Positions 6,001 through 62,985 of a DNA stretch of 64,000 nucleotides are shown here, piece by piece. The first letter of the stretch is position 1; each line of letters starts with the position of its first letter. This stretch comes from an uncultured Christensenella sp. Its GTDB lineage: Bacteria; Bacillota; Clostridia; Christensenellales; UBA1242. The stretch covers positions 1,734 through 65,733 of the forward strand of contig CAYVXW010000002.1 of NCBI GenBank assembly GCA_964455585.1. Direction: 5' to 3'. The notes beneath the pieces are model-generated. The model was not told the DNA's origin, did not search any database, and was given only the letters and a program-made list of their open reading frames with translations. Made by a program: the position numbers and the translations under genes.

Positions 6001-7276
6001 CCTCTGGCAAACTGCTTGCGTCCAAGGTTATTCCATCACTTCCCGCATATGCAAATTTTGCACCGCCTTTAAAGTCGTTTCCCGTAAAGCCAATTATGGT
6101 AGCCGTACGGTTTACGGTAATGGTTGACGAATCCGAAATAACGCCGTCAACACCCCCGCCACTAATAGTAACCGTCGCCCTTCCGCCACGCTTTACTTTT
6201 AGTTTTCCGTTTTCGAGTTTTATAACTTCCGAAGACAAACCGCTCTCATCTGTGACCACAATATTTAGTTTGCTTGCATCCATATCAAGAGGTGCATAAG
6301 AATATTTTAGAACCAATTCTTCGTCGTTTTCATAATCGGCAAAATTGATATTGGTTGGACTGTCTATCGAAAAAGATATCGAACTAAACTTCCCAAATGT
6401 GGATGTATACTTTTTTGTAACCTCAATGTTGGTGCCCGCAATATATGCCGTAACATTAATTGTGCCCGCTTTACTAAAAGTTATGTTTCCGTTTTCGTCC
6501 ACAGTTGCAACATTTTGCCCCTCAACATCCGCTACTCTATATGATATTTTTTCGCTTGCACCACTTGGGGAGAGTTCGACATTTGGGAAGACAAAACTAG
6601 TTTTGGAAGAAAACTCGTCGCCGTCCTTTCCTTTTTCGATTTCCATACCCGACACATGTGGCTTTGCGCTAATTCTTAGCGACACACTTAGATTTGGATT
6701 GGAGTGCAAATATGCGGTAATGGTGGTTTCTCCTCCGCCTACAACTGTAACAACCCCGCTTTTTGCAACGGTGGCTACACTTGGGTCGGACGAAACATAA
6801 TCTAGTTCTACATCAATAGCGTCGCTAGGAACCCAAACGACATTTAGTTTGTATGTATCGCCCACATACATATTTTTTTGCGTTTCAGAAAGGCTTAGGC
6901 TATGAACCCTTGCGCTAGTAACCCTTACCTTGCAATACGCCGTTTTGGTGCCATTTTCTTTGGATTTTGCGTGGATATATGTTTCGCCAAAATCTACCCC
7001 CACAATCTTTCCCTTTGAATTGACCGTTACAATATTTTCGTTATCGCTCCAAAACTCAACTTCTTTGTTATTTGCAAGAAGAGGAAAAACATTTACTTTG
7101 ACTTCGCCCGAAACACTATCCGCGGTATCCTTTTGCAAGACGATTTCGTCTTCGACAAACTCAAGGTATTCAACATAAAGATAGGTGGACATATTAACAA
7201 TATTTCCACTAAGCAACAAAATGCCAAGCACAATAAGTGGCATTAGTATCAATGTAAATATCATTGTCTTTTTCAT
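1..7276 (-). CDS. Giant surface protein with tandem Ig-like (Big_2-type) domains. Only the 5' part is present (2,425 codons); the gene runs off the left edge.
   Basis: The ORF is absent from the supplied track because it has no stop inside the window. Hand translation of the minus strand from ATG 7276-7274 (AGGAGG at 7290-7285) gives MKKTMIFTLILMPLIVLGILLLSGN, a signal or anchor. Further on it reads NIVTVNSKGKIVGVDFGETYIHAKSKENGTKTAYCKVRV and DPSVATVAKSGVVTVVGGGETTITAY, which are Big_2-like repeats. The left edge in the same frame (codons 2-4, 5-7 ...) reads SSDVVTIKVTSGDGEVSATASFQMTDITGF. No minus-strand fragments of this frame appear in the track, as expected if the frame is open throughout. 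The + ORFs at 213-7178 are its antisense shadows. Confidence 0.85.
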   Translation of the reverse strand, partial: MKKTMIFTLILMPLIVLGILLLSGNIVNMSTYLYVEYLEFVEDEIVLQKDTADSVSGEVKVNVFPLLANNKEVEFWSDNENIVTVNSKGKIVGVDFGETYIHAKSKENGTKTAYCKVRVTSARVHSLSLSETQKNMYVGDTYKLNVVWVPSDAIDVELDYVSSDPSVATVAKSGVVTVVGGGETTITAYLHSNPNLSVSLRISAKPHVSGMEIEKGKDGDEFSSKTSFVFPNVELSPSGASEKISYRVADVEGQNVATVDENGNITFSKAGTINVTAYIAGTNIEVTKKYTSTFGKFSSISFSIDSPTNINFADYENDEELVLKYSYAPLDMDASKLNIVVTDESGLSSEVIKLENGKLKVKRGGRATVTISGGGVDGVISDSSTITVNRTATIIGFTGNDFKGGAKFAYAGSDGITLDASSLPEDANDEITYSLSDDSVAEVKSGKLIFKDNIIASGYGKVTVTARTDKGVTSSVVVMYIGESLEKIDISRDLDDADTICLNMRKSGEGVRKFALIDEQVENFEDVQFVLSGSTCLEQMGTSPVFTLKDKGTAQITVSYLKNGKVDSTKTVTVVINRLVESIDNLKVKASWGEDKSTTFDITNDQTSVYSTAKEFEILYTLTPNNATATTAILSVESCSEDGIALINGHKVTFSGIGDITILVEVDGICRKVVIHSTYLHPDDTTSLNVKEIHLSHDNNDTCDLYNYVSMLDGVNKEYITFEVTGNSITIQNNIVSTRHGGVSKVKVYADTGDTQKKYLGEISISVSESAKTTITTSGEYFFADSNVFDFGSLFAFSPSTATGNSKLYYNIISGGNVATLDGSKLSFSGAGSCTVMARLNGQSDGAKITVVYTGNSTVLDIKDIVIIKGTTVMLKPSSTALSSASYDQKFVSSTKDIALQGAKVTVNGSGKVTFGDEEFNFVCLSQNTISLMPKNSGDYTLVGGVYETGKTELDLEVLVGGDGKLPEYVSSGYATLTYGEGVKVEDNCVIFDHAGTYSPKLTLAYANSVVGGESNGMSCAISIRTTYGVANITKKSGVSTEKVFDEENSLTNYFDLNDYLNISPKPFVLDESVQVEVTKASRENMVTVDGLKLKFNAGGEFEIKVTNKTTGTSLDIIKFTVNRIATGISLDGTELKESGKNEVVGNRATIYVNPIAMPLDANQKRIISWEITKDDGSVAEKPSTNDRIVFSKAGESIEVTFTLESGKTFVVSYMTTDVMYEVDIESQTIIAPVGEPFTFISSTGRLDPSKIEFTGTVDGVEECIDDRGSVYYKFTKSFSKDVNIKFKYDTEPGQEQGKEETIKRRAISVSDKQSILDGEIKIVDQKPNGESVELSTKQEHSTASSSITLKFMELDEFGADGERLAYNFKSSDENIATIDNGVIVFKKAGSVTITASITYKILPLDNASAVAVEETTLETKVLEYSFVVSSTYGRVTGFDGVTLSYTYLYDTMENKSIDLLKNIARVAPTYGVSSDTPSVSVNGTCASWSGSNLNIVGSGTSSVMVTYGTMQKEVSIKIDKYIDSISILENSTNKGISQVVTKDSSYKFNYVFNNLVTPTLLDLDVVLKIDGVDASASGYVSLEDGVATLKGLERNKKYSISLNAKDGGASASLEVITISDDVNVVDLGGGTNRDIVLVSGQKYIFEDRYNTNIYNIIDHNNVVSVDQIGVFKVAHGDEGTITLGASGASDIGIHYVATESVKSIVLGDSAWEDNHLTAMGSKADGLGIDLKEVYAPSIKPTTARTFENVGSALSSKAFEVKFEILGGNDIASIENGVLYFTAQGAITIKISTTDEDGEYECITRKITSTLGYYKSLTASVSFDGETKDSYVFDYSTTPKTPTIKYTYLPSDIDLKSDKAKISIISTDESVFEWKENGVRFVGGGSAKLRFGYSTSQTQTKTQDIDIYVLNKATSVTITVDGKGNNYMVTKYGENESLQLGYTAVANNGATLSPYNAIFTSSDEKVATVDDNGKVSFVGNGQVVITIKVASEKNESGVYDATDTITIVNNKDYEIVSLDLSASSGGEASEEKVETLRVGKSNYVLYPSSSDDNYTSYAFEVESPANAIATTSLRTSKGATQRTSALRGVSENDILSVNELGEITLKGKGGYVTILVTATKPNGGKDTFTLNFYVWKEAQIKLAEGKNNVYTALTEWNVAPIVIVNNGDGSMVDKTIEYKVASGGSFASVSADGKVTFTGAGKATMRVSVVYGGKEEVGVDFVIESTFGKATSFDLYKVTGGTEGKISNEASITLKTKDKNAIKFAIKNILPTDVTAVLDIENNNSGFGCTPATDQIGFTLTGLSATTDGQLKVGVSGSGKYTLKVSVIQLAESIDITLNEKVISSRISSSFASTIELGYKLDSNNVSDQSATWTIVSGEGASLNVSGKVCVLTLSSSDVVTIKVTSGDGEVSATASFQMTDITGF

Positions 7277-7305
7277 ATTTTCCCCCTCCTATAAAATTTG
7301 GATTT

Positions 7306-8913
7306 TTATTGTTCTATTTTTAGATATCTTTTTTGTGTAAGAGTCGCAAATAGAATTGTGTTTATTGTGGCATATAGTAACGCTATGCCAAGCAAAATTA
7401 GATAGGTATAATCAACGCTTATAAAGAAACTTAGGAATATTCCTAGTATCCCCTCAATTGCGGTTACCAAAATTCCAATAAGCATTGCGGTTAGCGTGTT
7501 GGTTTGGCTCTCATCGCCCTCGCTTGACTTTATATTTGGTCTAGCGACATTTATATTAAAGCCATTAAAGATTATGCCTATAGTTAGTAACAACGCCGTT
7601 GCAAGCACCACAAGTCCTTCTACAATGGTTATAAACTTAAGCGCACATAGTACCACAAGCGATATTATAACCGCAAGCATCGACACAATAAAGTTTACAA
7701 GCCCCTTTGCAAGAAGTTGAACTCTAGCGTCAACGGGAGTAATTTTTGTAATATAAAATTGCTTCCCCTCTCTGCTAATTGCCGAGCCCGAAAACGAATT
7801 TATCATACTAACAAACGCAAGCACTACTAGTATCGACACGCCAAACGCTATGCTTCCGCCCATTTGAGCCTTTCCGACCTTTACTATTAGGTTGTTTGTA
7901 AGATAAACCATAATTGGAGTAACAATAGCAATTCCCAAATAGAAATACGAGTATCCCGAAGTTCTAATAATTTCTTTTATTTCTTTTTTGAATATCGCCA
8001 TAAATGGGCTATCGTTTGTAATCTTGCTTCCTTTAGAGAATATTTTTTTCTTGCCCTCAAGAGTTTGCAATCTAATTCTATCATAAATAGGAATAGCAAT
8101 GAGTATGCCTATGCCTAGTAGCACAATACTTGACGAAAGTATTATTCCCATCCCTGCCCAAAGCCCCTCGCCAAAAGCAATTGAGGCTAGATATCCAAAC
8201 AAGTTCCAACCATTGCCTAGCGACACAATTAGTGACACTAGTTTTGTTTGGGCTTCGGCATCAACTTTTTGGTGGATGTAGTATTCGGCAAGGAAATTTA
8301 GTAACATACTATATAGCACAAACACGCCCGCAATTACCACCAAAAACACAATAAGTTTTAGGATATTGCGATTTTGCAAACTAACGACTATATACATTGT
8401 TGGAACAACTAGCATTGTGGCAATCCCAAAAGGCACTAGAGGCGCAAAAATTGCCGACAAAAGCACTCTAAAGAAATATCCCACGCTAAGTATGCCCATC
8501 TTTAGTCCAAAAATGCACATAACTGACATTGTGGCAAATATGGATATAGCAAGCAAGTACACAAACACGATTATTAAGTGTGCCACAAATTGGCTAAGTG
8601 GCGACATTGGAAGGCGGGCTACAAGTTTTAGGTCTTTTGCATTTAGATAAAGTTTTAGTTCCATACTAATTCCAACTACTAGCAACACCACGCCTAGCAC
8701 TGTATAAAGAAGCCTAGAAAACTCTTTTGGGGTAATCTTGGACAAAAATTGACCGCTTATTACATCAAACATAAAGTAGCAAAGTGCTAGCCCTACGGCA
8801 ATAACAAGCACGCCCATAAGCGAGGTCATAACCCTACTTTTTTTGTCGACATTCTTGTCCGCCCTAAGGGAGAGTTTAAAGTGCATTCCTATGTACGAAC
8901 ATACTCTTTTCAT
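7306..8913 (-). CDS. ABC transporter permease (multi-pass membrane protein)
   Basis: The 535-aa ORF is almost entirely hydrophobic helices. Its ATG overlaps the stop of the upstream ATPase gene (ATGA at 8910-8913). A 29-nt gap separates it from the giant Ig-repeat gene. Confidence 0.75.
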   Translation of the reverse strand: MKRVCSYIGMHFKLSLRADKNVDKKSRVMTSLMGVLVIAVGLALCYFMFDVISGQFLSKITPKEFSRLLYTVLGVVLLVVGISMELKLYLNAKDLKLVARLPMSPLSQFVAHLIIVFVYLLAISIFATMSVMCIFGLKMGILSVGYFFRVLLSAIFAPLVPFGIATMLVVPTMYIVVSLQNRNILKLIVFLVVIAGVFVLYSMLLNFLAEYYIHQKVDAEAQTKLVSLIVSLGNGWNLFGYLASIAFGEGLWAGMGIILSSSIVLLGIGILIAIPIYDRIRLQTLEGKKKIFSKGSKITNDSPFMAIFKKEIKEIIRTSGYSYFYLGIAIVTPIMVYLTNNLIVKVGKAQMGGSIAFGVSILVVLAFVSMINSFSGSAISREGKQFYITKITPVDARVQLLAKGLVNFIVSMLAVIISLVVLCALKFITIVEGLVVLATALLLTIGIIFNGFNINVARPNIKSSEGDESQTNTLTAMLIGILVTAIEGILGIFLSFFISVDYTYLILLGIALLYATINTILFATLTQKRYLKIEQ

Positions 8914-16492: not shown

Positions 16493-17815
16493 CTAAATCA
16501 TTTCGTCTTCAAGGTCGTCAATTTCCCTTTCTCTTAGGTTAATAGTTGGGATATTGCTACCCTTGTCAATTATTCTAGAGCCGTCCTCTTTGGAAGATTT
16601 TTCTTTGCCTTTCTTTGCTTCGATATACTCTTTTATTTTTTCGTTTTCGCTAGCGACCGACTTGTTGTTTGCCAAGATTTCTCTTATGCGTTTTCTGCCC
16701 TCAACTCTAGATGTGCCTATCTTATTTGAGTACTCGTCAACAAATTTTTGAACCATTCCGTCGGTTACACTTTCAATGGAATTTTCGATGCTTGCGGTAA
16801 GTTCGTCGGTGCCGTGCTTGGTTATTTGATGAGCAACATATTGGATAGGGTTTACTCTAACAAAATAGTCTGGGGTTCCTTTATCCAAATTTCTTTTTGC
16901 CTCTTCAACGGTTACCTTGTACCAAAAACTATTTGGAGGAAGTTCGCCGTCCTTTATGGAGTTATACTCAGCCCCTGCAGTCATAGCGCCCTTAAATGGT
17001 GTGTACGAGCCACCCGAAATTAGGTAAACGGGTTTTTTGATAATTTGACCGTCTTTGCTTTCGCTTGCCACCATTGGTTTAAAGTAGTTCATAGAAGTTC
17101 TTGCAACATAAATGTCCGCGCCCCCTCTTTTGGTCGCTCTCTCTTCCATCTTTCTTCCAATGTATGCACCTGTGCTAGCGGTTGTGTGCCAATTTATTGT
17201 TCTAATGCCCACATTCGCCTTGCCCACAATATCGTCCTCGATTTGGACATTGACAAGAGCATCGTTGCAAACCTTTTTGTCAAGCCCCAACGCCTCTTGC
17301 AAAATTCCAAGCATATCTACTTTGTGGTTCTTTAGTATTCTATGCTCGCTAGTTCCTCTAACCATTGCCACAATTTTCCCCTCGTCCGCAAGGTCTTTGA
17401 ATAGCGAATAGAAGTATGCAATTTGGTCTTGATAAGATAGCATCTTTCCCTTCATCGTCTTTGGAATGTACGAAAACAATCCGCCGTTTAGAAGCACGAT
17501 TGCATTTTCGCTATCTTTCATAAGCGAAGTGTTGTATTCAAGTTCTTTTAGATATGGGGTTCTTTTGCTAATATGCTCGCCCGCAAAGTCAACAGTGGTT
17601 CCCGCATAACCCATATCCACATTTGAAATTTCGTTTAGCCCAATGCTATCGTCTTTTAGTTCGTAACAATATACATTTGGTGCGGTTTTGGACAAGTCTA
17701 CTTGCGTTTCGTCCAAAATTCTTTTTCTTACATCCTCGGCGTTTCTTCTTATATCGTCAACACTAATAACACTAGGGTCAATGCCGTCTTTCATAAGTTC
17801 TACAATATCTGACAT
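16493..17815 (-). CDS. Metallophosphoesterase-like protein with degenerate metal-binding motifs
   Basis: It is collinear with the upstream paralog but substituted at the catalytic positions. The motifs read LLNGGLF (GD to GG), VRGTSEHR (GNHE to GTSEH) and YVARTSMNY (GHTH to ARTS). I placed the start at MSDIVEL (ATG 17815, GGGGGA 7 nt upstream), 1 nt after the upstream stop, rather than the track start at 17917. Confidence 0.6.
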   Translation of the reverse strand: MSDIVELMKDGIDPSVISVDDIRRNAEDVRKRILDETQVDLSKTAPNVYCYELKDDSIGLNEISNVDMGYAGTTVDFAGEHISKRTPYLKELEYNTSLMKDSENAIVLLNGGLFSYIPKTMKGKMLSYQDQIAYFYSLFKDLADEGKIVAMVRGTSEHRILKNHKVDMLGILQEALGLDKKVCNDALVNVQIEDDIVGKANVGIRTINWHTTASTGAYIGRKMEERATKRGGADIYVARTSMNYFKPMVASESKDGQIIKKPVYLISGGSYTPFKGAMTAGAEYNSIKDGELPPNSFWYKVTVEEAKRNLDKGTPDYFVRVNPIQYVAHQITKHGTDELTASIENSIESVTDGMVQKFVDEYSNKIGTSRVEGRKRIREILANNKSVASENEKIKEYIEAKKGKEKSSKEDGSRIIDKGSNIPTINLREREIDDLEDEMI

Positions 17816-17816
17816 A

Positions 17817-18989
17817 TTACATTCCCCCTTTTTCGTTTTCTTGTGAGTAGTCTTTTGGAGCCTTTCGTGGCTTTTCGGCAATAGAGGCTTGGACCTTGTC
17901 CCTAACATAAGATTCAAAATCTGAAATGGCGTCTACCGCCTCACTAATCTTTTCATAAACTTTTTGGGACTCTTCGTCCATTGCACTATTTATGGACCTT
18001 CTTGCATCCCTAAGCCTTTTTCTTTTTATATTTGTATCCATCTTTAAACTTGGCGAAAAGAACGCACAAGCAGGAACAATTTCGGGATAAGATATTCCCG
18101 TTGGAGAAACCTTTCCCGCATATGGGTTTGCTTGAGAACTAAGCACCATCCAAACCGCCGAACTCTTTGCGGTGTCTGGCAAAGCCATTCCCGCGCCATA
18201 AGTTCCGCCACCACTTGCAGGCAAGGTCAAGCACATTACATCGTGGTATTCTTGTTTTCCCTCGTCGTTTAGACGAATGGTTCTGTCCATCTTCATTGAT
18301 TGATTGTGAGTGTGTCCAATTACGCACATATCGGCATTGTCTACATTTCTAAGAAGCCTAAATAGCCCGTCAATGTTGCTAATTCCCGTGCCGTGGTGAG
18401 TGGCAATCCTCACGTGAAACTTTCCGTCTTTTGAAAGTGGTTGTCTCAAAACCAAATCGGTGCTAGCATAATATGGAGCAAAAGCGTCCCCTAGCCCCGC
18501 CACATCGGCAGCCATCTTTATGGAACTCACCCCTACACTCTTTCGCATTCTATCCTCGTGATTTCCGCTATGCAAAACCACAATTTTACCCGTGTCGTTT
18601 AGGTCTTTTAGTGCTTCGGCAACTTCGCTATTGCCCTTTGCAACCTTTAGCACGTCCGAAAAAACATCCAATTGTTGTTGTGGGTTTAATATATCCTCAT
18701 ATGGGTCGGACTTGCTTCCAACAATCGCCGTATTAAGCGCATCGCCAAGCATAAAAATAACGGCATTTTCTTGTGAGCGAGCGTATCTTAGGGTGTCTAG
18801 AAGCCCCTTGATATCAAAATCACACGAGCCTATGTGCATATCGCTTAAAAAGCACACTTGCAATGTGTCAAACTTGTCGGAATAATCCTTTGTAATATTT
18901 TTTATGGTTGCGTTATTGCTATTATAAGCCGTGTCACCAACCAAGCCTTTGTACTGCTTGTCCAAAATCTTTAGTACATCTTCCCTCAT
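17817..18989 (-). CDS. Calcineurin-like metallophosphoesterase
   Basis: The full motif set is present: FLSDMHIG (DxH), MLGDALN (GD), HSGNHEDR (GNHE), THHGTG and VIGHTHNQS (GHTH). The likely start is MREDVL (ATG 18989, GGGAGA 7 nt upstream). The track start at 19004 is also possible. Confidence 0.8.
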   Translation of the reverse strand: MREDVLKILDKQYKGLVGDTAYNSNNATIKNITKDYSDKFDTLQVCFLSDMHIGSCDFDIKGLLDTLRYARSQENAVIFMLGDALNTAIVGSKSDPYEDILNPQQQLDVFSDVLKVAKGNSEVAEALKDLNDTGKIVVLHSGNHEDRMRKSVGVSSIKMAADVAGLGDAFAPYYASTDLVLRQPLSKDGKFHVRIATHHGTGISNIDGLFRLLRNVDNADMCVIGHTHNQSMKMDRTIRLNDEGKQEYHDVMCLTLPASGGGTYGAGMALPDTAKSSAVWMVLSSQANPYAGKVSPTGISYPEIVPACAFFSPSLKMDTNIKRKRLRDARRSINSAMDEESQKVYEKISEAVDAISDFESYVRDKVQASIAEKPRKAPKDYSQENEKGGM

Positions 18990-19021
18990 TTTGTAATCTC
19001 CCATAAATTCTAACTATCCCC

Positions 19022-19049
19022 ATTATATCACCAATTTCCAAAATGTCAA
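19022..19049 (-). promoter_or_regulatory. Near-consensus sigma-A promoter for the metallophosphoesterase pair
   Basis: The minus strand reads TTGACA (19049-19044), a 16-nt spacer ending in TGa, then TATAAT (19027-19022). Confidence 0.6.
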
Positions 19050-19244: not shown

Positions 19245-19273
19245 AAAAAAAAATACTTTGTATAAACAAAGTA
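19245..19273 (-). terminator. Intrinsic terminator ending the thyA-side operon
   Basis: The minus strand reads TACTTTGT-ttat-ACAAAGTA followed by T9. It begins 11 nt after the MazG-like stop. Confidence 0.6.
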
Positions 19274-19283
19274 CTTTTTCGTT

Positions 19284-19616
19284 TTAATCTTTTGGAATAA
19301 CTCTTTCCAAATAAATCCTATCATCAAAACCGCCACGCTTAGCACTTTTTCCGTTCGCAATTGAAACTATTTCATCAAGGCTTGAGCCCTCTAATTTTGC
19401 CATAGCCCTAATAATTTCCAAGACATCGGCAAGTTCTTCTAGCCTATCCGTCCTATTGTCCGCACCAACAACCTCTTTTGCCTCTTCAAAAAGTTTATTG
19501 TCTAATTCCCTCTTGTATTCCTCGTCACCCAACTTTCTTTCCACTGGCGTTTCGCCCTTAGACCTAATTATATTGGGAATGCCGTCTCTTACTAATTTGT
19601 TATATATTCTATCCAT
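19284..19616 (-). CDS. MazG-like all-alpha NTP pyrophosphohydrolase (small PRA-PH-like family)
   Basis: The protein reads MDRIYNKLVRDGIPNIIRSKGE...EE.KEV......RLEELADVLEII.A...LEG, which matches my memory of small MazG-superfamily house-cleaning enzymes. I placed the start at ATG 19616 (GGAG 6 nt upstream). Confidence 0.7.
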   Translation of the reverse strand: MDRIYNKLVRDGIPNIIRSKGETPVERKLGDEEYKRELDNKLFEEAKEVVGADNRTDRLEELADVLEIIRAMAKLEGSSLDEIVSIANGKSAKRGGFDDRIYLERVIPKD

Positions 19617-19629
19617 ACTTTTCTCCATT

Positions 19630-20007
19630 TTAATATATTCTTTTATTCGGAATAACGCCTCGGACACCACCCCTAGGATTATCCACGTCCCCATTATATC
19701 TTGGTATTAAATGCATATGCACATGCATAACGGTTTGCCCCGCCGAACTACCACAATTAAGCCCTACATTATACCCGTCTGGGCAATATTTTTTGTCTAC
19801 AATTTTTTTACATTCATTCAGCAACGCAATCATATCATTTTGCTCACGAGCCGACAAATCAAAAAAGGTTTTTGCGTGCCTCTTTGATATTATTAAAATA
19901 TGTCCATTACTTACAGGAAATCCATCGTAAAAAGCCACACACGACTCGTTCTCCGCAACACGCTCCTTTGTTTTCATAAAATTATCACAGAACACACAAT
20001 TTTCCAT
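19630..20007 (-). CDS. HIT-family nucleotide hydrolase/transferase
   Basis: The histidine triad is HVHMHLIPR, with an N-terminal CVFC. The start is MENCVFC (ATG 20007, AGAGGT 7 nt upstream), following a double stop of the upstream gene. Confidence 0.85.
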   Translation of the reverse strand: MENCVFCDNFMKTKERVAENESCVAFYDGFPVSNGHILIISKRHAKTFFDLSAREQNDMIALLNECKKIVDKKYCPDGYNVGLNCGSSAGQTVMHVHMHLIPRYNGDVDNPRGGVRGVIPNKRIY

Positions 20008-20023
20008 AACAAATACCTCTTTA

Positions 20024-20839
20024 TTACATAGTCCTTTCATCGGTCATGCCACGAACCGAATCGTTTAAAATGTCTCTTTTCCCCTGAGGGGTTTGAATAT
20101 CCCAAAACACCAATTTCCCATTGTTGTTCATCGACGCCGAAACAACATATTCTTTAGAAATTGTCCAATTTTTATCGATATTTTGGACATGTTCAATCAG
20201 TTTTTCAATTAACGCACAATCCATCGGTATAAATTTATGATCAAAAATTTCTTCTGTCACCGGAACACCCATTTTGTTTAATTTATTAATTCTTACAAGT
20301 TTATTGTTATCAAATTCAAACTGATTAACAATATTTAATTTTATATATCTCCACCACTCTTCTTGCCATCCGCGTCTTATTGGAAGATCAAAAGAAATTG
20401 TCTCTTGCGGAGAAATATCTCCCCTATTGATATCTGATACATCAAAGCCCTTTCCAACGCACTCCATAATTAAAATGCCCGCTTCTCTCTTTACATACAA
20501 ATTTATGCCATATATGTTTTTTGTACGATCTATAGGTTGAAGCAACCATAACTGTGTGCCATCAACCAATTTTTTTTCTAACTCATCAAGACTTAACTTC
20601 GCTTTGCTCCCGCCTCGAATAGGACTTGTGGTTGGATGCGTGTATTGGTATCTAACCGTACAGTAATCCGACTGAAGAACATCTTTAATTTGCTCAATTT
20701 TGCTATCGGTGATTTTTTCGTTCTCTTCAAATAACACACTATCCAAAACAGGACAATTAACTCCTGCCAAAAATTGATATGTTGATATTTTCTCATTTTT
20801 GCTATTCTTATAAGAGTTATTTGGCAAAATAATCATCAT
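20024..20839 (-). CDS. Uncharacterised 271-aa protein with no motif I can place
   Basis: The ORF shows good coding character. The start is ATGATG at 20839 with GAGGAGG upstream, overlapping the upstream gene by 23 nt. Confidence 0.7.
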   Translation of the reverse strand: MMIILPNNSYKNSKNEKISTYQFLAGVNCPVLDSVLFEENEKITDSKIEQIKDVLQSDYCTVRYQYTHPTTSPIRGGSKAKLSLDELEKKLVDGTQLWLLQPIDRTKNIYGINLYVKREAGILIMECVGKGFDVSDINRGDISPQETISFDLPIRRGWQEEWWRYIKLNIVNQFEFDNNKLVRINKLNKMGVPVTEEIFDHKFIPMDCALIEKLIEHVQNIDKNWTISKEYVVSASMNNNGKLVFWDIQTPQGKRDILNDSVRGMTDERTM

Positions 20840-21491
20840 TTTCCTCCTCAACATGTCCGTCAAATACTTGCGGATTGTTTTTATAAAACTGAATACTTTC
20901 TTCAATTTTATCAAGCATTGGAGAGTCTCTCCAATTCCAATTCAACATATCCAAACTCTCCGCCAAAACTTTTCGCAAAAATTGCGAAGGCAACCCCTGA
21001 TGTGTAATAATATAATTTGAGCCATCTATATCCCTATAATACAAGTATGTATCGTGCTCCTTACACACATTTCGCAAATCTGATATGTCATTGATTGGCA
21101 AAACATCAAACTTGTACTTTTCAATATCCCTCAAAAGAGAGCTATTGTGAGGAAAAGAGTGCAAATGTGCATGTACAATACTCTTCCCACTCTCATTGTG
21201 TGGGAAGAGTGCCCCATGTTCAAAAAATGCAGATTTTGAATTAAAATAATCGTTATTAATTTTTTCTTGCCAAGACACAATCTTTTCCAACTCGGAATAT
21301 TGCGCGTCAGTCAGTTCACCAAAACAATTGATATGTTTTTTAGGAACTATTAATTGATAATTGCTAACAAACCCTCCCGTGGTCGGAAAAACAACAAAAC
21401 TACTTGTTTGTCCAACAATTCGAGACTTCCCCACCACACTTTCCTTAGGATTTCGTAATTCCACGCAAAATGGACAATCCTTCTTTTCCAT
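20817..21491 (-). CDS. HIT-like protein with a C-terminal extension
   Basis: It has an N-terminal CPFC and the triad-like HAHLHSFP, followed by about 100 extra C-terminal residues. The ATG lies 2 nt after the upstream stop, with GAGGAGGTG inside the upstream gene's end. Confidence 0.7.
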   Translation of the reverse strand: MEKKDCPFCVELRNPKESVVGKSRIVGQTSSFVVFPTTGGFVSNYQLIVPKKHINCFGELTDAQYSELEKIVSWQEKINNDYFNSKSAFFEHGALFPHNESGKSIVHAHLHSFPHNSSLLRDIEKYKFDVLPINDISDLRNVCKEHDTYLYYRDIDGSNYIITHQGLPSQFLRKVLAESLDMLNWNWRDSPMLDKIEESIQFYKNNPQVFDGHVEEENDDYFAK

Positions 21492-21493
21492 AT

Positions 21494-22342
21494 CTACACC
21501 TCCTCGAAAACATCGTATATGTTAGATTCTAATTTCTTTGTATTAATCATTTTCAGTTTCCCATCTTGTTCCAATATTAGTATTTTGCCAACTATAAGCT
21601 TAATATTGCCACACAAACTATCAACATTATTTGTTATTTCAACTTGTGTCCCCTCGCTAACACAAACCTTTTCCAACAATGTGCGAAAACAGACATATTG
21701 TGGTTCTTTCAAAAAGTATTGCTTGTACTCTAAAATGTTGTCAACAAAGCCATTTAAACAATCTAGCAATTTGTGTTTTGCGGTCTCCTCATCTAACGGT
21801 ACAAAAAAATTCTTCATTTTGTATGAATTTATCACCATTCCCGCAACGCCACAATTCATAATCTGTTTTTCTATACTTCTTGCCATTTGACCTGATTGCA
21901 CCTTTGCAACCAAAAAAGCGATAAGCGCCCCTTGTTCCAAAAGCCGCTCTTTCCACCTCATTTCAGAAGCCGTACCAACCTTAATTTTGTCGCCGGCAAA
22001 ATAGGCCAAATACACATAATGAGGGGAATCACAATAGTCCAAGGAATATTTGTTATTGTTTTTACATGGCCGTTGTCCATGACAAGAAACACACTTATAA
22101 AACTCATATGCATATTTGCATCTATTGCATTGTGTATCTACGCCCGCCACCGTATTGTTACACCCGATATATTCCTGTGTTTTAGGGTTAATCGTTCCCA
22201 CACACATCCTTAGCCCAGTTTTTTTTATTTTGATGCTGCCCGGGACACTTATATATTCATCTTCATTTTTGTTTTGTATCTTAATGTGCATTAAAGGCTC
22301 ATTTTCTCCACGCCACACGACACCCAAAAAGGTCACTTTCAT
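21494..22342 (-). CDS. Cys-rich (zinc-ribbon-like) protein followed by a YVYLA...KIKVGTA...R...EQGA core
   Basis: The Cys cluster is C..C.......C..C...C........C. It is followed by HYVYLAYFAGDKIKVGTASEMRWKERLLEQGA. From memory this resembles DUF2797 or T5orf172/GIY-YIG-like cores; this is not verified. Confidence 0.65.
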   Translation of the reverse strand: MKVTFLGVVWRGENEPLMHIKIQNKNEDEYISVPGSIKIKKTGLRMCVGTINPKTQEYIGCNNTVAGVDTQCNRCKYAYEFYKCVSCHGQRPCKNNNKYSLDYCDSPHYVYLAYFAGDKIKVGTASEMRWKERLLEQGALIAFLVAKVQSGQMARSIEKQIMNCGVAGMVINSYKMKNFFVPLDEETAKHKLLDCLNGFVDNILEYKQYFLKEPQYVCFRTLLEKVCVSEGTQVEITNNVDSLCGNIKLIVGKILILEQDGKLKMINTKKLESNIYDVFEEV

Positions 22343-22368
22343 ATTTACACCAATTATTCATTTTTTAT

Positions 22369-22377
22369 ATTTTATCA
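22369..22377 (-). promoter_or_regulatory. Extended -10 box TGATAAAAT in the folA-downstream gap
   Basis: The minus strand reads TGaTAAAAT about 27 nt upstream of ATG 22342. No good -35 is present. Confidence 0.35.
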
Positions 22378-22401
22378 TATTGTTAAAAAAATTACAACTC
22401 T

Positions 22402-22905
22402 TTATAACCTCAAACAACCTCTATTTTCATACACATTAAACCTATAGCCTAGCCCGTTTTCGTGGGCTTTTTCACCCAAGGTCTTTAGCGTCCAATTTGG
22501 CATAGTTTTTATGTTGTTTATATATGTGTCGGCATCCGCCACCGACGCATCCACCTCGGTGATATAGGCATACTTGCAATATGGCATAAGTAGATTGTAT
22601 ACACTTCCGCCACCTATTACAAATATGTCGTCGGTATTATACTTTTTTAGTTTGTCTAATAGGTCGTCAAGACTTCTAGCAATTATAACGCCCTCGTCCA
22701 TAAAATTTGGGTCGCTACTAAGCACAATGTTTGTCCTATTTTTTAGTGGTCTAAATGGCAAAGAATGATAGGTCCTTTCGCCCATTACAACCACCTTGCC
22801 AGTCGTCTTTTCTTTAAAATATTTTAGGTCGCTTGGCAAATTGAAAAGTAGGTCGTTATCCTTTCCAATGGCAAATTCCTTTGATACCGCAACTATAAAG
22901 TTCAT
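22402..22905 (-). CDS. folA: Dihydrofolate reductase
   Basis: The N-terminus MNFIVAVSKEFAIGKDNDLLFNLPSDLKYFKEKTTGKVVVMGERTYHSLP follows the DHFR pattern. The protein is 167 aa, and its start abuts the thyA stop. Confidence 0.9.
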   Translation of the reverse strand: MNFIVAVSKEFAIGKDNDLLFNLPSDLKYFKEKTTGKVVVMGERTYHSLPFRPLKNRTNIVLSSDPNFMDEGVIIARSLDDLLDKLKKYNTDDIFVIGGGSVYNLLMPYCKYAYITEVDASVADADTYINNIKTMPNWTLKTLGEKAHENGLGYRFNVYENRGCLRL

Positions 22906-24052: not shown

Positions 24053-24081
24053 TTGACAAAGGACACCACAACGGCTACAAT
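24053..24081 (+). promoter_or_regulatory. Sigma-A promoter of the metK leader
   Basis: The layout is TTGACA (24053-24058), N17, TACAAT (24076-24081). The predicted transcription start near 24088 coincides with the 5' end of the riboswitch. Confidence 0.6.
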
Positions 24082-24087
24082 ATACAT

Positions 24088-24216
24088 ATCCATAAAGAGT
24101 GTGCGAGGGACAGCCCCGATGACCACACAGCAACCTGCGTCCCCCCGCAAGGTGCTAAAGGCTGACCGATGGGACTCATAATATACCTCACCCCATCGGT
24201 TTCGATGGGATTTTTT
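24088..24216 (+). promoter_or_regulatory. SAM riboswitch (S-box/SAM-I-like core) with terminator/antiterminator platform
   Basis: The core reads AAAGAG-TGTG-c-GAGGGA-caGCCCCGATGA-c-CACA-GCAACC-[tgcg-tcccccc-cgca]-aGGTGCTAAAgg. The terminator is CCCATCG-gttt-CGATGGG followed by T6 (24192-24216). The alternative 9-bp helix pairs ACCGATGGG (24165-24173) with CCCATCGGT (24192-24200). Confidence 0.75.
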
Positions 24217-24256
24217 GTTACTTTTTATGGAAATACAAACAAAAAAGAGAGAACTT

Positions 24257-25378
24257 ATGAGAAATTTATTTAAAAAAACAAAAGAAAGATACATTATATC
24301 TAGCGAGTCGGTAAATATCGGTCACCCTGACAAAACTTGCGATGTGATTGCCGACAGTTTTTTGGACGAAGCATTGGCTCAAGACCCAATGTCTATGATG
24401 GCAGTGGAATGTGCAATTAAGGACAACACCCTATTTATCTATGGCGAAGCCACAACAAAAGCCAAAATTGACTATGAGGAAATTGCAAGAAAAAAACTAA
24501 AAGAAATTGGCTACGATTGCGAATTTAAAATTGTAAAAAAACTATCCAAACAAAGCGTTGAAATCGGAAACGCCGTGCTCCAAAGCGAAATAAGCGCCAA
24601 CGACCAAGGCATTATGTATGGCTATGCTAGCGACGAAACCGATGAGTATATGCCAATGCCAATAACTATTGCTCATAGCCTTATGAGGACATACGACGAA
24701 TATAGGAAGAAAAACAAAAAGTATTGTCCCGACGCAAAAGCCCAAGTGTCTATTGAGTACGAGGACGGAAACCCTAAGCATATCGAGACCATACTATTGT
24801 CGGTGTCGCACAAAGAGGGGCTCAAAAACTCGGCAATTGCAAAAACTATGAAGGAAGAGGTCATCGCCCCAACCCTTCAAAAATATATAGGGCTTGTGGA
24901 CGAGAACACAAAGTATATAATCAACCCTAGCGGAAGTTTTACTATTTGGGGAAGTTTTTCGGATAGCGGATGTGTTGGAAGAAAAATTGTTGTTGACACC
25001 TATGGCGGAGTGGGCAGAGTTGGCGGAGGTTGTTTCTCTTCCAAAAACCCAACCAAAGTAGATAGAAGTGGCGCGTACTACGCTAGATTTGTTGCCAAAA
25101 ACATTGTAGCAAACGGACTTGCCAAAAGATGCGAAATTCAAGTGGCTTATGGCATAGGGCTAAGCAAGCCTATTAGCATTTATATTGATACCTTTGGCAC
25201 CGAAAAAGTAAAACTGTCTAGGATTTATGATATTGTAAACACAAACTTCGACTTCTCGGTTGGCAAAATTATTGAAAGCCTAAACCTAACCCAACCAATC
25301 TACACCAAAACCGCTTGCTTTGGTCACTTTGGAAACCCCGAGTACCCTTGGGAAAAAATTATTGAACTAAAAAAGTAG
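24257..25378 (+). CDS. metK: S-adenosylmethionine synthetase
   Basis: Motifs are GHPDKTCD, NDQGIMYGYA, DAKAQVSIEY and GGGCFSSKNPTKVDRSGAYYAR. I placed the start at MRNLFKK (ATG 24257), downstream of the terminator. The track start at 24215 would lie inside the terminator. Confidence 0.92.
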   Translation: MRNLFKKTKERYIISSESVNIGHPDKTCDVIADSFLDEALAQDPMSMMAVECAIKDNTLFIYGEATTKAKIDYEEIARKKLKEIGYDCEFKIVKKLSKQSVEIGNAVLQSEISANDQGIMYGYASDETDEYMPMPITIAHSLMRTYDEYRKKNKKYCPDAKAQVSIEYEDGNPKHIETILLSVSHKEGLKNSAIAKTMKEEVIAPTLQKYIGLVDENTKYIINPSGSFTIWGSFSDSGCVGRKIVVDTYGGVGRVGGGCFSSKNPTKVDRSGAYYARFVAKNIVANGLAKRCEIQVAYGIGLSKPISIYIDTFGTEKVKLSRIYDIVNTNFDFSVGKIIESLNLTQPIYTKTACFGHFGNPEYPWEKIIELKK

Positions 25379-52663: not shown

Positions 52664-55600
52664 TTATTTGTGTCTTGGGTATGTGCCCGAAACATCATAT
52701 CCGCCATTTTCTTCCTTTTCCATAGTCGATTTTAGGTTGTCAAGTGCGGTATTTGTATTTCCGCCCGCCGAACTACCCTCAACAAGGGTACCAAATTCGC
52801 CCGATGCTAAGTTAAACGAATCTCCATTGAAGATGTAGTACGAGTTTGTAACTGTTGCAATACGAGAAATTGCATTAATGTCAAGTTGTTGGTGTACGGT
52901 GAATGTGTAATTTAGAACCACATAGCATTTTTCTACTGTTGCACTTCCGCCCGAACTTGCGGAAACTATTCCCGCAACGATAATGGAACTTGCATTCTCG
53001 CCCGAATTAGAAGTTGTGTGCTCAACCACAACTTTTGCAAGGGAATAGCAAGTAGAAATTGTTACATTTGTACCCGAGCCAACTTCGCACATAATTGCAC
53101 CAAGAACGCCCGACCTACTTTCAGTACTATCTTCTATTCCATCGTCGGTTACAGTAAGAACAACATTTTCGTCAACATAACATTTAGAAATTGTTATGTT
53201 GCTATTGGTGCCACCAACTACTTCCTCGGACATAACCACAATTCCGGCTACATAGTTTGCATAAATTTTGCCAACATAAAGTTCGCCCGTCGTATCAACA
53301 ATTGCACCAAAACTACAATTTTCGATTACCGAACCGCCACTTGTTTTGCCTACAATTCCGCCTGCTTTGGAGGTCTTGTTGGTCAAGGCTTCGATATTTA
53401 GTTTTGCTACAGAATTTTTGATTGTACCCATATTGGAAGCAACCACGCCACCAACCAAGATAGCAATTTGAGTTTTTACCTCAAGTACAATTTGGGCTTT
53501 CATACTCTTTGAGTAGTCGATATTGCTTGCACCCTCGTCTACCCTATTGCCGTTTTTGTCGGTTAGATATGGAAGAACATTTACGCTATCAAGTGTGCCA
53601 TAGTTTCTAATAGCAACGCCCGATACCATATATTCCGAAACATCACTACTGTTGGTGTAGTCGATATTTACTTGGAAGTTGGTGTTCCTAATTGTTCCAT
53701 AGTTGTCAAGAATGAATGACATATATGAAGTCTTGTCGTTCTCCTCCTTAACAGATGGGGTGATGTTGTAAATATAGTGATTGTCACCATCAATTACACC
53801 CGAGAAACTATCTATCATTGTCCAATTTGGATTGTAATTGGTTTGACCCATAGAAGAAGACTCAATCTTTATATCTTTTTCTAGTTTGTAATCGCTAGTT
53901 GGGTAAATTCTAATGTTATTTAGATTAGCGTAAGTAGCAATTGCATATGGAATGTATTCCGTGCCATTTCCGGATGCAAATAGCGTCATACTAACATCCG
54001 TCAAGTTTGGACGATAAGTGCCCGACTTGTATGCGCCCTTGTCGCTAGAAGCCGTGTCGTAAGCGGTAGTTGTAAGACCAAATGTATACTCGCTTGCAAC
54101 CGCCCTTAGTTGATAACTTGTTGGGGTTGGTTCGCCCTCGCCCGATTTTAGGATAATCAAATCTTTTACATAAATAGTAAATGTTTCGCCTTGGGTATAG
54201 TCGTAACTAATTCTTCTTTCCTCAACAGTATTGTCATCTAGATACTTGCTATCAAAATTACTATTTTTTGTAGTATTTTGGTCAAAGTCTGGAGTTGTGC
54301 CATTAAGTGGAGAAGTGATGTGTGCCGATTTTAACCAAGCGTTTAGAGCCTCGGCATCTAGGTTTTCTACCTTGTAGGTAGTTTCCAAAATGATATTGTA
54401 ACCGGTAGAAATATGGTCTTTGTTGGATAGCGTCCAAGAAAGTGTTCCAGTTGCACTATCATATTTTGCATCCACTGGTGCGGATGGAATAGATATGTCT
54501 AGTTTTGCGCTATAACTACTGCTTACAAATGCTCTATTGGTGCTAGTCTCGCCCAAGCCGTCGGTAGTTTCAATTGTTCCAATTGCTTGCACAAATGCAC
54601 AAATTTCGGAACCGCTTGAACTTAGTTTGCCAATAAGGTTGTTCATCTTGAATATCATTTCGTTATCATTTACTTCGGTAAACTCGTTGCTTGCCCAAGT
54701 CAAGCCTTCTTTAGTTTCAACATCCGACCTTTCTGGATATTTGATTTCTACAGTTGCCGTGCCATTTACGCCTTTGTAGATTGTGTAAATGTATTCAGAA
54801 TATGTGCCGTCGGAATTCTTTACATAGAACTTGACTCTATATCCCGAAGCGTTAGTTTGAAGTGGCCAATAAATTCTACTTTCTTGCGAAGCGGAAGTGT
54901 TTGCCACGTTCTTGAGTTCTGGAGTTTGCAACTTGGTGATATAGAACTCTTTGTTGCTACTTGCTAGATAGAACCTATCGCCATCCTTAATGCTATCGGT
55001 CGAGCCCTCAGTTCCACTATACTTAATAACAATATCGTGGTTGCCCGCGCCAAATGTTACGGTGTCGGCAGATGAATTGTAAGTTTGGAAGTTGTCCACA
55101 GTTAGTTCGGTAAAGTACTTGTACGAAAGAGTTGATGTGCTATCAATCGTTACACTGTTTCCGTCTATCTTTAGTTCAGGAAGAGTAACGGATTGACCTG
55201 CCGTCTTGTCCGCCTCGGTTCCCCAACCGAATACACCATCCTCAACTGTTGGCTCAGGGTCGGCAATTCTTGTAACTTCAAGACTTGCGGAGTACGAACT
55301 ATTTAGATATCCGGCATCAAATTTTGCAATAGCCTTTACTCTAATATTGGTTGTACCCAAAATGCCGTCATAAATCTTTGTTGTTGCAGTTGTGCTAGTA
55401 TCAATTTCTTTTTCTTTTGTGCCCCATTGATACGAAATGGCATATTTGCTTACATTGCCAGTGGTGTCGTTGGATTTTCCGTTCCACCATAGGTTGCCTT
55501 CTTTGTCAACTCCTAGCCCAGTAGGAATTGCAAGACGCAAGTAACTACCCGACCAAATCTTATTCTCCTCGTCCTCAACCTTGTGGGTCTTAACGGTGTC

Positions 55601-62920: not shown

Positions 62921-62985
62921 TTCTACACCTTTAGTCATTTTATTTAAAGTCTTTGTGGGGAGTCGCCCCACCTTTCTCTTGAGTT

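Follow-up and report, generated by a model that had tools for sequence, protein, structure and literature searches.

This report concerns five adjacent genes, here named A to E, on the minus strand of a 64,000-nucleotide stretch of DNA (the window) from an uncultured Christensenella sp. The genes are tightly packed into one operon and encode, in the order of transcription, a DUF2797 protein (A), a long protein of the HIT superfamily (B), a predicted ATP-grasp enzyme (C), a canonical HIT protein (D), and a small MazG-like protein (E). A sixth gene, X, is usual elsewhere but missing from the window operon, which is one variant of a modular accessory cassette shuffled by horizontal transfer. The reading we favor, with a probability of roughly 0.4, is an accessory pathway for making or turning over a modified pyrimidine nucleotide that probably serves in conflict among microbes or with phages. 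Literature and library searches found no published description of the cassette, which agrees with an earlier interpretation made from the letters alone (the sequence-only reading) that no operon of this composition had been described.

Conserved core and accessory status of the cassette

A set of 68 loci, including the window, was assembled from genomes and metagenomes, with open reading frames (ORFs) assigned by iterative profile search; gene co-occurrence was counted in the 17 non-redundant loci possessing at least 3 kb of flank. B occurs together with C in 15 of the 17, A is present in 11 (twice as an X::A fusion), X in nine, and D and E in seven each. The same gene order is found in dozens of contigs, a co-conservation that exceeds chance. 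Most carriers among the gut Bacilli and Clostridia (e.g., Clostridium sp. CAG:762 and CAG:302) show the order A-B-C-X-D-E, and the window order A-B-C-D-E recurs independently in loci L014, L025-L027, and L044. The co-conservation of a nucleotide-handling block, on which the sequence-only reading depended, is therefore seen, but the five genes are not its unit, and gene X had been missed.

Co-occurrence, the range of versions (Table 1), and gene fusions together point to a conserved engine made of B, C, and a nucleoside triphosphate (NTP) pyrophosphatase, for which three unrelated folds are used: MazG-like, dUTPase/DCD-like, or Nudix. The MazG-like form is found in the type 1 loci, in L065 and L066, and on the Streptomyces plasmid pSMg1-2; a DCD/dUTPase-like partner is present in at least 11 loci, and homologous Nudix genes occur in two very divergent versions. 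Among 144 representatives of C, two are E::C fusions (P0406 and P0423) and three are fused to the phosphohistidine swivel domain of PEP-utilizing enzymes (P0416, P0466, and P0502). These C::swivel proteins match phosphoenolpyruvate (PEP) synthase at 3.6e-25 and have Pfam PF00391 on record, and B adjoins both fused forms of C.

Table 1. Versions of the cassette that depart from the window order
Genes	Loci	Remark
WYL regulator, B, C, X::A	L017, L046, L047	X::A fusions of 592-616 aa; dCMP-deaminase-family gene also in L047
C-X-A-B-thymidylate kinase	L004	behind acyl carrier protein (ACP), ketosynthase-like, U32, and GT2 genes
C-X-pyruvate kinase-dCMP deaminase-thymidylate kinase	L005	
C, DCD/dUTPase-like, B, methyltransferase	L015, L048-50	
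C-B-methyltransferase-TruD-like-DCD-like-PHP	L051-55	
B-methyltransferase-C(-DCD-like)	L019, L057, L062	
B12-radical-SAM, B, A, distant C homologue	L020-22	with Nudix gene
Nudix, 318-aa unknown, B, C::swivel	L077/78	
DCD-like, B, C	Streptomyces sp. Mg1 plasmid pSMg1-2	E homologue 3 kb away

The commonest partners of C are methyltransferases and the nucleotidyl-transferase-type protein B. A RumA-like uracil-5-methyltransferase gene lies directly upstream of the cassette in eight loci, and radical-SAM partners of both the SPASM and the B12 type appear in divergent versions. One of the latter, the B12-binding radical-SAM gene of L020/L021 (5007-6263), matches the PADLOC candidate PDC-M51A at 5.5e-18. 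A pyrimidine substrate is a reasonable, if unproven, inference from the recurrent DCD-like, dCMP deaminase, thymidylate kinase, TruD-like, U32, and RumA-like partners.

The version on pSMg1-2 (NZ_CP011666.1, record 85571-91883) offers a starting sequence from a named strain for experiments. Its DCD-like, B, and C genes lie at ~88.6-90.7 kb, and the region also encodes an E homologue, a methyltransferase, a LysR regulator, and a cysteine desulfurase, the DCD/dUTPase-like protein being 181 aa long. B and C are recognized there at 3e-37 and 2e-25, respectively, and the remaining genes are annotated as hypothetical.

In the window, the block lies directly downstream of thyA-folA, and the sequence-only reading had counted this among its pointers to a dedicated nucleotide pathway. 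Related contigs with 81-88% nucleotide identity keep the genes for the iron-dependent alcohol dehydrogenase, metK, thyA, folA, the neighboring genes F and G, cls, and the two-component system, and lack the segment corresponding to window positions 19637-22421, that is, the end of folA, all of A, B, and C, and nearly all of D. What remains in these contigs is an in-frame folA-E ORF encoding a 278-aa dihydrofolate reductase (DHFR) plus MazG-like protein (L073 4044-4880, and also L074 and L075; compare 19284-22905 of the window), in which folA codon ~161 is joined, at a GAAAATA microhomology, to the last bases of D and an intact E. This ORF may be a natural fusion of DHFR and an NTP pyrophosphatase or a decaying remnant. 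Linkage of E to D in a further 29 loci favors a deletion of A-D in the related contigs over an insertion in the window. Whichever history applies, the absence of A-D from these syntenic contigs makes the cassette accessory and A-D dispensable; the flanks of other carriers are unrelated, and only in this lineage does the cassette adjoin thyA-folA. A functional link to thyA-folA is therefore not upheld.

These observations bear directly on the explanation that the operon serves housekeeping sanitation of the dNTP pool with thyA-folA, the HIT and MazG-like enzymes clearing aberrant nucleotides formed in the course of thymidylate synthesis. Both families include house-cleaning enzymes, the block does follow thyA-folA directly, and E stays beside folA, even fused to it, in the related contigs. 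Against this stand the dispensability of A-D, the lack of a thyA-folA adjacency in any other carrier, and the rarity of the family: homologues of C fill only ~100 clusters when grouped at 90% identity, and 1.84 billion proteins yielded 372 representative clusters. Sanitation also has no need for an ATP-grasp enzyme, DUF2797, or X, and in its plain form, which had been among the four candidate roles put forward earlier, it leaves unexplained the conserved ATP-grasp enzyme and the methyltransferase, TruD-like, radical-SAM, and kinase partners. We consider it the least probable of the alternatives discussed here. Synthesis or turnover of an unusual nucleotide, another of those four roles, gives the best comparative fit.

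The cassette is distributed patchily across Bacillota, Bacteroidota, Pseudomonadota, and one Actinomycetota plasmid, and genes for WYL regulators, recombinases, and toxin-antitoxin systems occur near its loci. It is this four-phylum spread, together with the presence/absence polymorphism and such neighbors, that suggests a role in conflict. Genes such as gatAB, metK, cls, and those of a two-component system mark the window itself as bacterial chromosome; a phage origin was considered and rejected, as a 12-kb megablast against GenBank phages gave no match. No A, B, C, or X was found by tblastn in GenBank phages, and scans of IMG/VR yielded no cassette. We also rejected a hydroxymethylase identity for the window ThyA: the protein passes TIGR03284, its gene pairs with that of DHFR, and the related contigs retain it where A-D are missing.

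Gene X encodes a protein of 295 aa with no Pfam family and belongs to a family of >1000 members with no Pfam or PDB sequence match (homologue positions are given in Table 2). Its invariant residues are H42-x-E44, E102-x-H104, E140, D179, H217, H232, and E269. X also occurs alone, in three settings: next to BREX-like genes (DUF1156/DUF499/DUF3780), next to BrnTA and an AP_endonuc_2 gene in L071, and, on the Thermococcus barophilus plasmid pTBMP1 (archaeal), next to a DUF2357 protein. The idea that X is a TIM barrel of the Endo IV/xylose-isomerase type is not supported: there was no Pfam match at E = 10 and no PDB profile match, and hhalign against an AP_endonuc_2 protein returned a probability of 0.3.

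Predicted activities of the five proteins

Protein C, for which the sequence-only reading could place no motif and offered ATP-grasp as a guess, has no Pfam family and matches no Pfam ATP-grasp hidden Markov model (HMM). The guess is borne out by structure prediction. An AlphaFold2 (AF2) model with a predicted local distance difference test (pLDDT) score of 92.7 gave 53 Foldseek matches in the PDB at E <= 0.001 (top E 7e-5), the best 50 of which are all ATP-grasp enzymes, with probabilities of 0.98-1.0 and template modeling (TM) scores of ~0.4. These include MdnC, a macrocyclase of ribosomally synthesized and post-translationally modified peptides (RiPPs) and the best match, as well as the succinyl-CoA synthetase beta subunit SucC, Ddl, and PurK. 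Conserved motifs in C are RYQY, VGKGFDVSDLNRG, EWWK, and FWDIQTP, and the invariant or nearly invariant residues, candidates for Mg/ATP binding, are D247-I-Q249 (within FWDIQTP), E126, R63, and K17. On the model, C is a compact, stand-alone ATP-grasp-fold protein and a predicted enzyme. Membership of the PEP-utilizing dikinases (PpsA/PPDK/RPH) was rejected, as C in the window stops where its ATP-grasp module does; the swivel domain PF00391 is confined to the distant relatives described above.

The match to MdnC fits a different explanation, namely a secreted nucleoside, peptidyl-nucleotide, or phosphoramidate natural product. C would then serve as ligase or kinase and B as nucleotidyl transferase, and D (with E) would make the producer immune by cutting the toxic nucleotide, as HIT hydrolases do with microcin C-like antibiotics. 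HIT hydrolases are documented as immunity enzymes against peptide-nucleotide antibiotics (PMC7157772). Radical-SAM/SPASM, B12-radical-SAM, methyltransferase, TruD-like, ACP, and ketosynthase-like genes accompany divergent versions, and one version of the cassette lies on a Streptomyces plasmid. On the other side, no small conserved ORF of the kind expected of a RiPP precursor was found downstream of E in 28 loci; there is also no conserved exporter, ThiF-like adenylyltransferase, or peptidase, and the window cassette consists of just five small genes. We regard such a product as distinctly unlikely.

Protein B was correctly recognized in the sequence-only reading as a HIT-like protein with a C-terminal extension. 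CxFC, EHG, and HAHxH are invariant in 35/35 sequences, the triad being H107-A-H109-L-H111, and the extension of ~100 aa has conserved residues of its own (Y149, Q170, R173, and W187). The Pfam score against DcpS_C is 25.4 bits (cut-off 24), and that against HIT PF01230 is 18 bits (below the cut-off of 21.5), with CwfJ_C_1 also among the matches listed; B is a divergent HIT member, since HxHxH is invariant yet PF01230 falls below its cut-off. The phage protein family phrog_23000 matches B over its full length at 4e-15. Membership of the GalT-type nucleotidyl transferases was rejected on the basis of TIGR00209 (19.4 bits against a cut-off of 102), the HxHxH rather than HxHxQ motif, and the single HIT domain. 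A transferase-like mechanism may nonetheless apply to B, whose similarity to GalT is faint.

In the case of protein A, the earlier guess of DUF2797 proved right: PF10977 is matched with 64.3 bits (cut-off 25) over residues 37-273 and is present in all homologues of A as well. The family has been mentioned only in passing in the literature retrieved by full-text searches. The protein is laid out as an N-terminal beta domain, a Cys-rich cluster, an alpha/beta core, and a C-terminal beta domain. When 56 relatives are aligned, the Cys/His cluster (C72, C75, C84, C87, C93, C104, and H108) proves conserved and the core YVYLAYF..KVGTA..R..RLLEQGA..AR.IE invariant. Y111, K121-V-G-T124, R133, E136, and E158 are invariant as well, a pattern possibly like that of the GIY-YIG superfamily. 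With 37-41% identity to its relatives, compared with 54-75% for B-E, A consistently diverges faster than the other genes of the cassette.

The second guess made for protein A, T5orf172/GIY-YIG, fared less well. No GIY-YIG/T5orf172 Pfam match appeared even at E = 10, and the AF2 model (pLDDT 92.9) found no solved structure of matching fold in the PDB. Against the viral models of BFVD, it gave matches at E 0.006-0.9 that are enriched in GIY-YIG, T5orf172, and homing endonucleases. Because these fold matches are weak, the identity is plausible, not established, and the core is possibly GIY-YIG/T5orf172-like.

Taken with the Pfam profile of B, these matches also fit a pathway that processes the ends or bases of polynucleotides, either RNA or DNA. 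In such a pathway, B would take off or transfer a nucleotidyl group at a 5' end or cap in the manner of aprataxin or DcpS, C would phosphorylate or ligate, A, as a GIY-YIG-like protein with a zinc ribbon, would bind or cut nucleic acid, and D and E would clear by-products. DcpS_C is the sole Pfam match of B above cut-off, with CwfJ_C_1 pointing the same way; A brings its conserved Cys cluster in addition to the weak endonuclease-like fold matches; the TruD-like, RumA/TrmA-like, U32, and dCMP_cyt_deam_1 partners have RNA-modifying relatives; and X by itself sits beside restriction-like and BREX-like genes. The recurrent partners acting solely on free nucleotides (MazG-like, dUTPase/DCD-like, Nudix, thymidylate kinase, and pyruvate kinase) speak against it, E::C fusions favor small-molecule chemistry, and no helicase, ligase, or classical repair partner was present in the loci examined. 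We therefore think polynucleotide processing unlikely.

Protein D is a canonical HIT protein, as the sequence-only reading had stated, with 88.1 bits against PF01230 and the motif HVHMHLIPR. It is of the Hint/Fhit/Ap4A-phosphorylase type, and its PDB sequence matches reach down to 1.5e-16. In PADLOC-DB v2, D (4e-14) and weakly B (0.009) match only the HIT accessory ThsC. One could accordingly imagine a defense based on a nucleotide second messenger, where B, C, and possibly D would make or convert a signal on infection, A (with X, where that is present) would be the nuclease-like effector, and E and D would reset the system. The resemblance of D to Ap4A phosphorylase and ATP adenylyltransferase, its ThsC match, the adjoining WYL regulators, the fast divergence of A, and the presence of X alone in defense-like islands are all compatible with this. 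Many versions, though, have neither A nor X and carry non-effector genes instead (methyltransferase, DCD-like, TruD-like, and PHP), and they encode no signal synthase of the known cyclase, TIR, or SMODS types; this makes signaling quite improbable in our view.

Protein E was described in the sequence-only reading as a MazG-like NTP pyrophosphohydrolase. The motifs KLVRDGIP, EEAKE, and EELAD, with a putative ExxE...ExxD metal-binding pattern readable in the sequence, are in keeping with this, as is the public annotation of the pSMg1-2 homologue (2.5e-25 to the E profile), namely nucleoside triphosphate pyrophosphohydrolase. The HMM scores fall just short: 18.6 bits for PRA-PH (cut-off 21.3) and 13.9 bits for MazG (cut-off 22). 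No match to E was found among PDB sequences.

A proposed pathway and its nearest known relatives

The data above establish the operon structure, assign the folds and families, and document the co-occurrence, the fusions, and the accessory status; we infer every catalytic step of the pathway that follows, its pyrimidine specificity, and its role in conflict. E would convert a (deoxy)NTP, probably dCTP, dUTP, or dTTP, to the monophosphate, a part that a dUTPase/dCTP-deaminase-like or Nudix enzyme would play in other versions. C would supply ATP-driven activation, either by phosphoryl transfer of the PEP-synthase/rifampin-phosphotransferase type, as suggested by the swivel fusions in distant relatives, or by acyl-phosphate ligation, as suggested by its fold matches. 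B would form a covalent nucleotidyl-histidine intermediate and then transfer or hydrolyze the nucleoside monophosphate group, such that C and B would activate and then derivatize or re-nucleotidylate the monophosphate. D might clear a phosphoramidate or polyphosphate side product or protect the producer. A would be an auxiliary, zinc-binding, fast-evolving subunit that may confer target or substrate specificity, in some loci as a fusion with X. The predicted product is a non-canonical pyrimidine nucleotide or a nucleotide-activated compound, and its role is probably in inter-microbial or anti-phage conflict rather than housekeeping.

Several points weigh against this scheme and should be kept in mind. 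The fold assignment of A is weak, E remains below the Pfam thresholds, and C resembles ligases (MdnC, SucC, Ddl, and PurK), not dikinases, in its leading fold matches. The relatives of the TruD, RumA, U32, and TadA-like deaminase partners normally act on RNA, not on free nucleotides, and the closeness of RumA-like genes and of thyA-folA to the cassette may reflect nothing but synteny. PADLOC-DB v2 has no model that matches A, C, E, or X. Finally, the window version has neither X nor any kinase, so it may be incomplete or need host enzymes. A more specific proposal is somewhat unlikely: an undescribed conflict system (anti-phage or antibiotic) in which a stand-alone, dikinase-like ATP-grasp enzyme and a HIT enzyme with a nucleotidyl-histidine intermediate would produce a non-canonical pyrimidine nucleotide, DUF2797 and X would serve as specificity or effector proteins, and D and E would protect the producer.

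Each enzyme superfamily of the cassette is known, as are nucleotide-analogue cassettes in phage hypermodification, viperins with kinases, and nucleoside antibiotic clusters. Among the closest parallels to the pathway favored here is the pre-replicative pyrimidine modification of T-even and related phages, which uses a dCTPase, a ThyA-like enzyme modifying dCMP or dUMP, and a dNMP kinase, for example in the 5-hydroxycytosine pathway (PMC13326640). The MazG-type dCTPases of T-even phages provide the monophosphate before the base is modified (PMC13326640), and the cassette is alike in that an all-alpha MazG-type dNTP pyrophosphatase would feed monophosphate to a modifying enzyme and in that thymidylate-kinase-like and deaminase genes occur within its clusters. 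It is unlike them in being cellular, with no occurrence found in GenBank phages or IMG/VR, and in having ATP-grasp and HIT proteins as candidate modifying enzymes with no ThyA homologue, the window thyA being a housekeeping gene.

PEP synthase, pyruvate phosphate dikinase, rifampin phosphotransferase, and the Campylobacter L-glutamine kinase Cj1418 combine an ATP-grasp module with a phosphohistidine swivel. Cj1418 belongs to the O-methyl-phosphoramidate pathway, where a nucleotidyl transferase and methyltransferases act after it. Distant relatives of C likewise carry the swivel directly after the ATP-grasp module, and the two commonest partner types of C may have their counterparts in that pathway. 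The window C differs, having no swivel, no Pfam PPDK_N match, and ligases as its best fold matches, and the nucleotidyl-transferase candidate of the cassette is a HIT protein, not a Rossmann-type cytidylyltransferase.

Prokaryotic viperins with adjacent nucleotide kinases are antiviral producers of nucleotide analogues. Like them, the cassette is accessory, and some divergent versions contain radical-SAM and thymidylate-kinase-like genes; unlike them, the window has no viperin-family enzyme, the radical-SAM partners belong to the SPASM and B12 types, and the core is built from other enzymes. Pseudouridimycin-type C-nucleoside biosynthesis employs the TruD-like PumJ and ATP-grasp amide ligases. 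A TruD-like gene and an ATP-grasp gene share a cluster in L051-L055 only, a possible resemblance confined to that divergent version, and the window has no TruD-like gene. Microcin C-type peptide-nucleotide clusters carry HIT (MccH) immunity (PMC7157772); here, too, a Hint-type HIT protein is found inside a nucleotide-related accessory cluster, but the window has no MccB-like adenylyltransferase, precursor peptide, exporter, or MccF/MccE. The combination of a long HIT protein, a stand-alone ATP-grasp protein, DUF2797, and X matches none of the systems compared, whose defining features are absent here.

If the favored reading is true, DUF2797, the C family (~370 representative clusters), and the X family would gain a function, and gut bacteria would possess a new route to a modified nucleotide. 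This would be relevant to phage defense, to the discovery of nucleoside analogues, and to the pairing of HIT and ATP-grasp enzymes.

Operon layout and neighboring features

The positions of the five genes and of other features are collected in Table 2. The gene calls were taken from the ORF table and a reading of the junctions, and a public record of the locus, one 84-kb NCBI contig, contains identical protein sequences except that the start of C is placed one codon later. The spacing reported in the sequence-only reading was matched exactly: A and B are separated by 2 nt, B and C overlap by 23 nt, the TAA TAA stop of C is followed by a 16-nt gap before D, and 13 nt lie between D and E.

Table 2. 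Coordinates of features in the window and, where a locus is named, elsewhere
Feature	Position	Strand	Remark
Gene A	21494-22342	minus	282 aa, DUF2797
Gene B	20817-21491	minus	224 aa, long HIT protein
Gene C	20024-20839	minus	271 aa (270 in public call), predicted ATP-grasp fold
Gene D	19630-20007	minus	125 aa, canonical HIT protein
Gene E	19284-19616	minus	110 aa, small all-alpha MazG/HisE-like
Five-gene block A-E	19284-22342	minus	
Promoter-like TTGTAA-17-TGaTAAAAT	22397-22369	minus	in 59-nt gap, folA stop to A start
Intrinsic terminator	19245-19280	minus	15-bp AU-rich hairpin, then U9
F-G unit	16493-19049	minus	downstream of and separate from A-E
Gene F	17817-18989	minus	390-aa metallophosphoesterase
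Gene G	16493-17815	minus	440 aa
F-G promoter TTGACA-16-TGnTATAAT	19049-19022	minus	perfect match
Promoter upstream of riboswitch	24053-24081		11/12 match
SAM-I riboswitch RF00162	24087-24209	plus	52.9 bits
Riboswitch terminator hairpin	24192-24209		
metK	24215-25378		
Giant ORF	52664-62971	minus	3435 aa
X homologue, L007	7803-8690		
X homologue, L068-70	7001-7891		
X homologue, L080	5998-6924		

The statement that each gene has a strong Shine–Dalgarno (SD) sequence inside the preceding gene holds for B (GAGGAGGTG) and C (GAGGAGG). The SD sequences of D (AAGAGG) and E (GGAG) are located in the short spacers, and A has only a weak GGTG. No Rfam family was found within the five-gene block.

A terminator downstream of the block had been proposed, and the hairpin GAAAAAGUACUUUG-UUUA-UACAAAGUAUUUUU with its U-run is indeed stable, at -14 kcal/mol and z = -4.57 against shuffled sequences. 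With fewer than three G-C pairs in its stem, the hairpin escaped a consensus terminator scan. The extended -10 element proposed after folA exists as sequence, with a TG ahead of the -10 box, but the site matches the consensus at just 9/12 positions. The region holds 27 such matches where 19.6 ± 4.1 would be expected at random, so that in this AT-rich DNA the site cannot be told apart from a chance match.

Downstream of the operon, the stop of F and the start of G are separated by a single nucleotide (TAAtATG). G has no Pfam or PDB match, and the F-G unit is kept in the same synteny in the related contigs L073-75. The SAM-I riboswitch lies directly upstream of metK, and the window also contains a giant ORF (Table 2).

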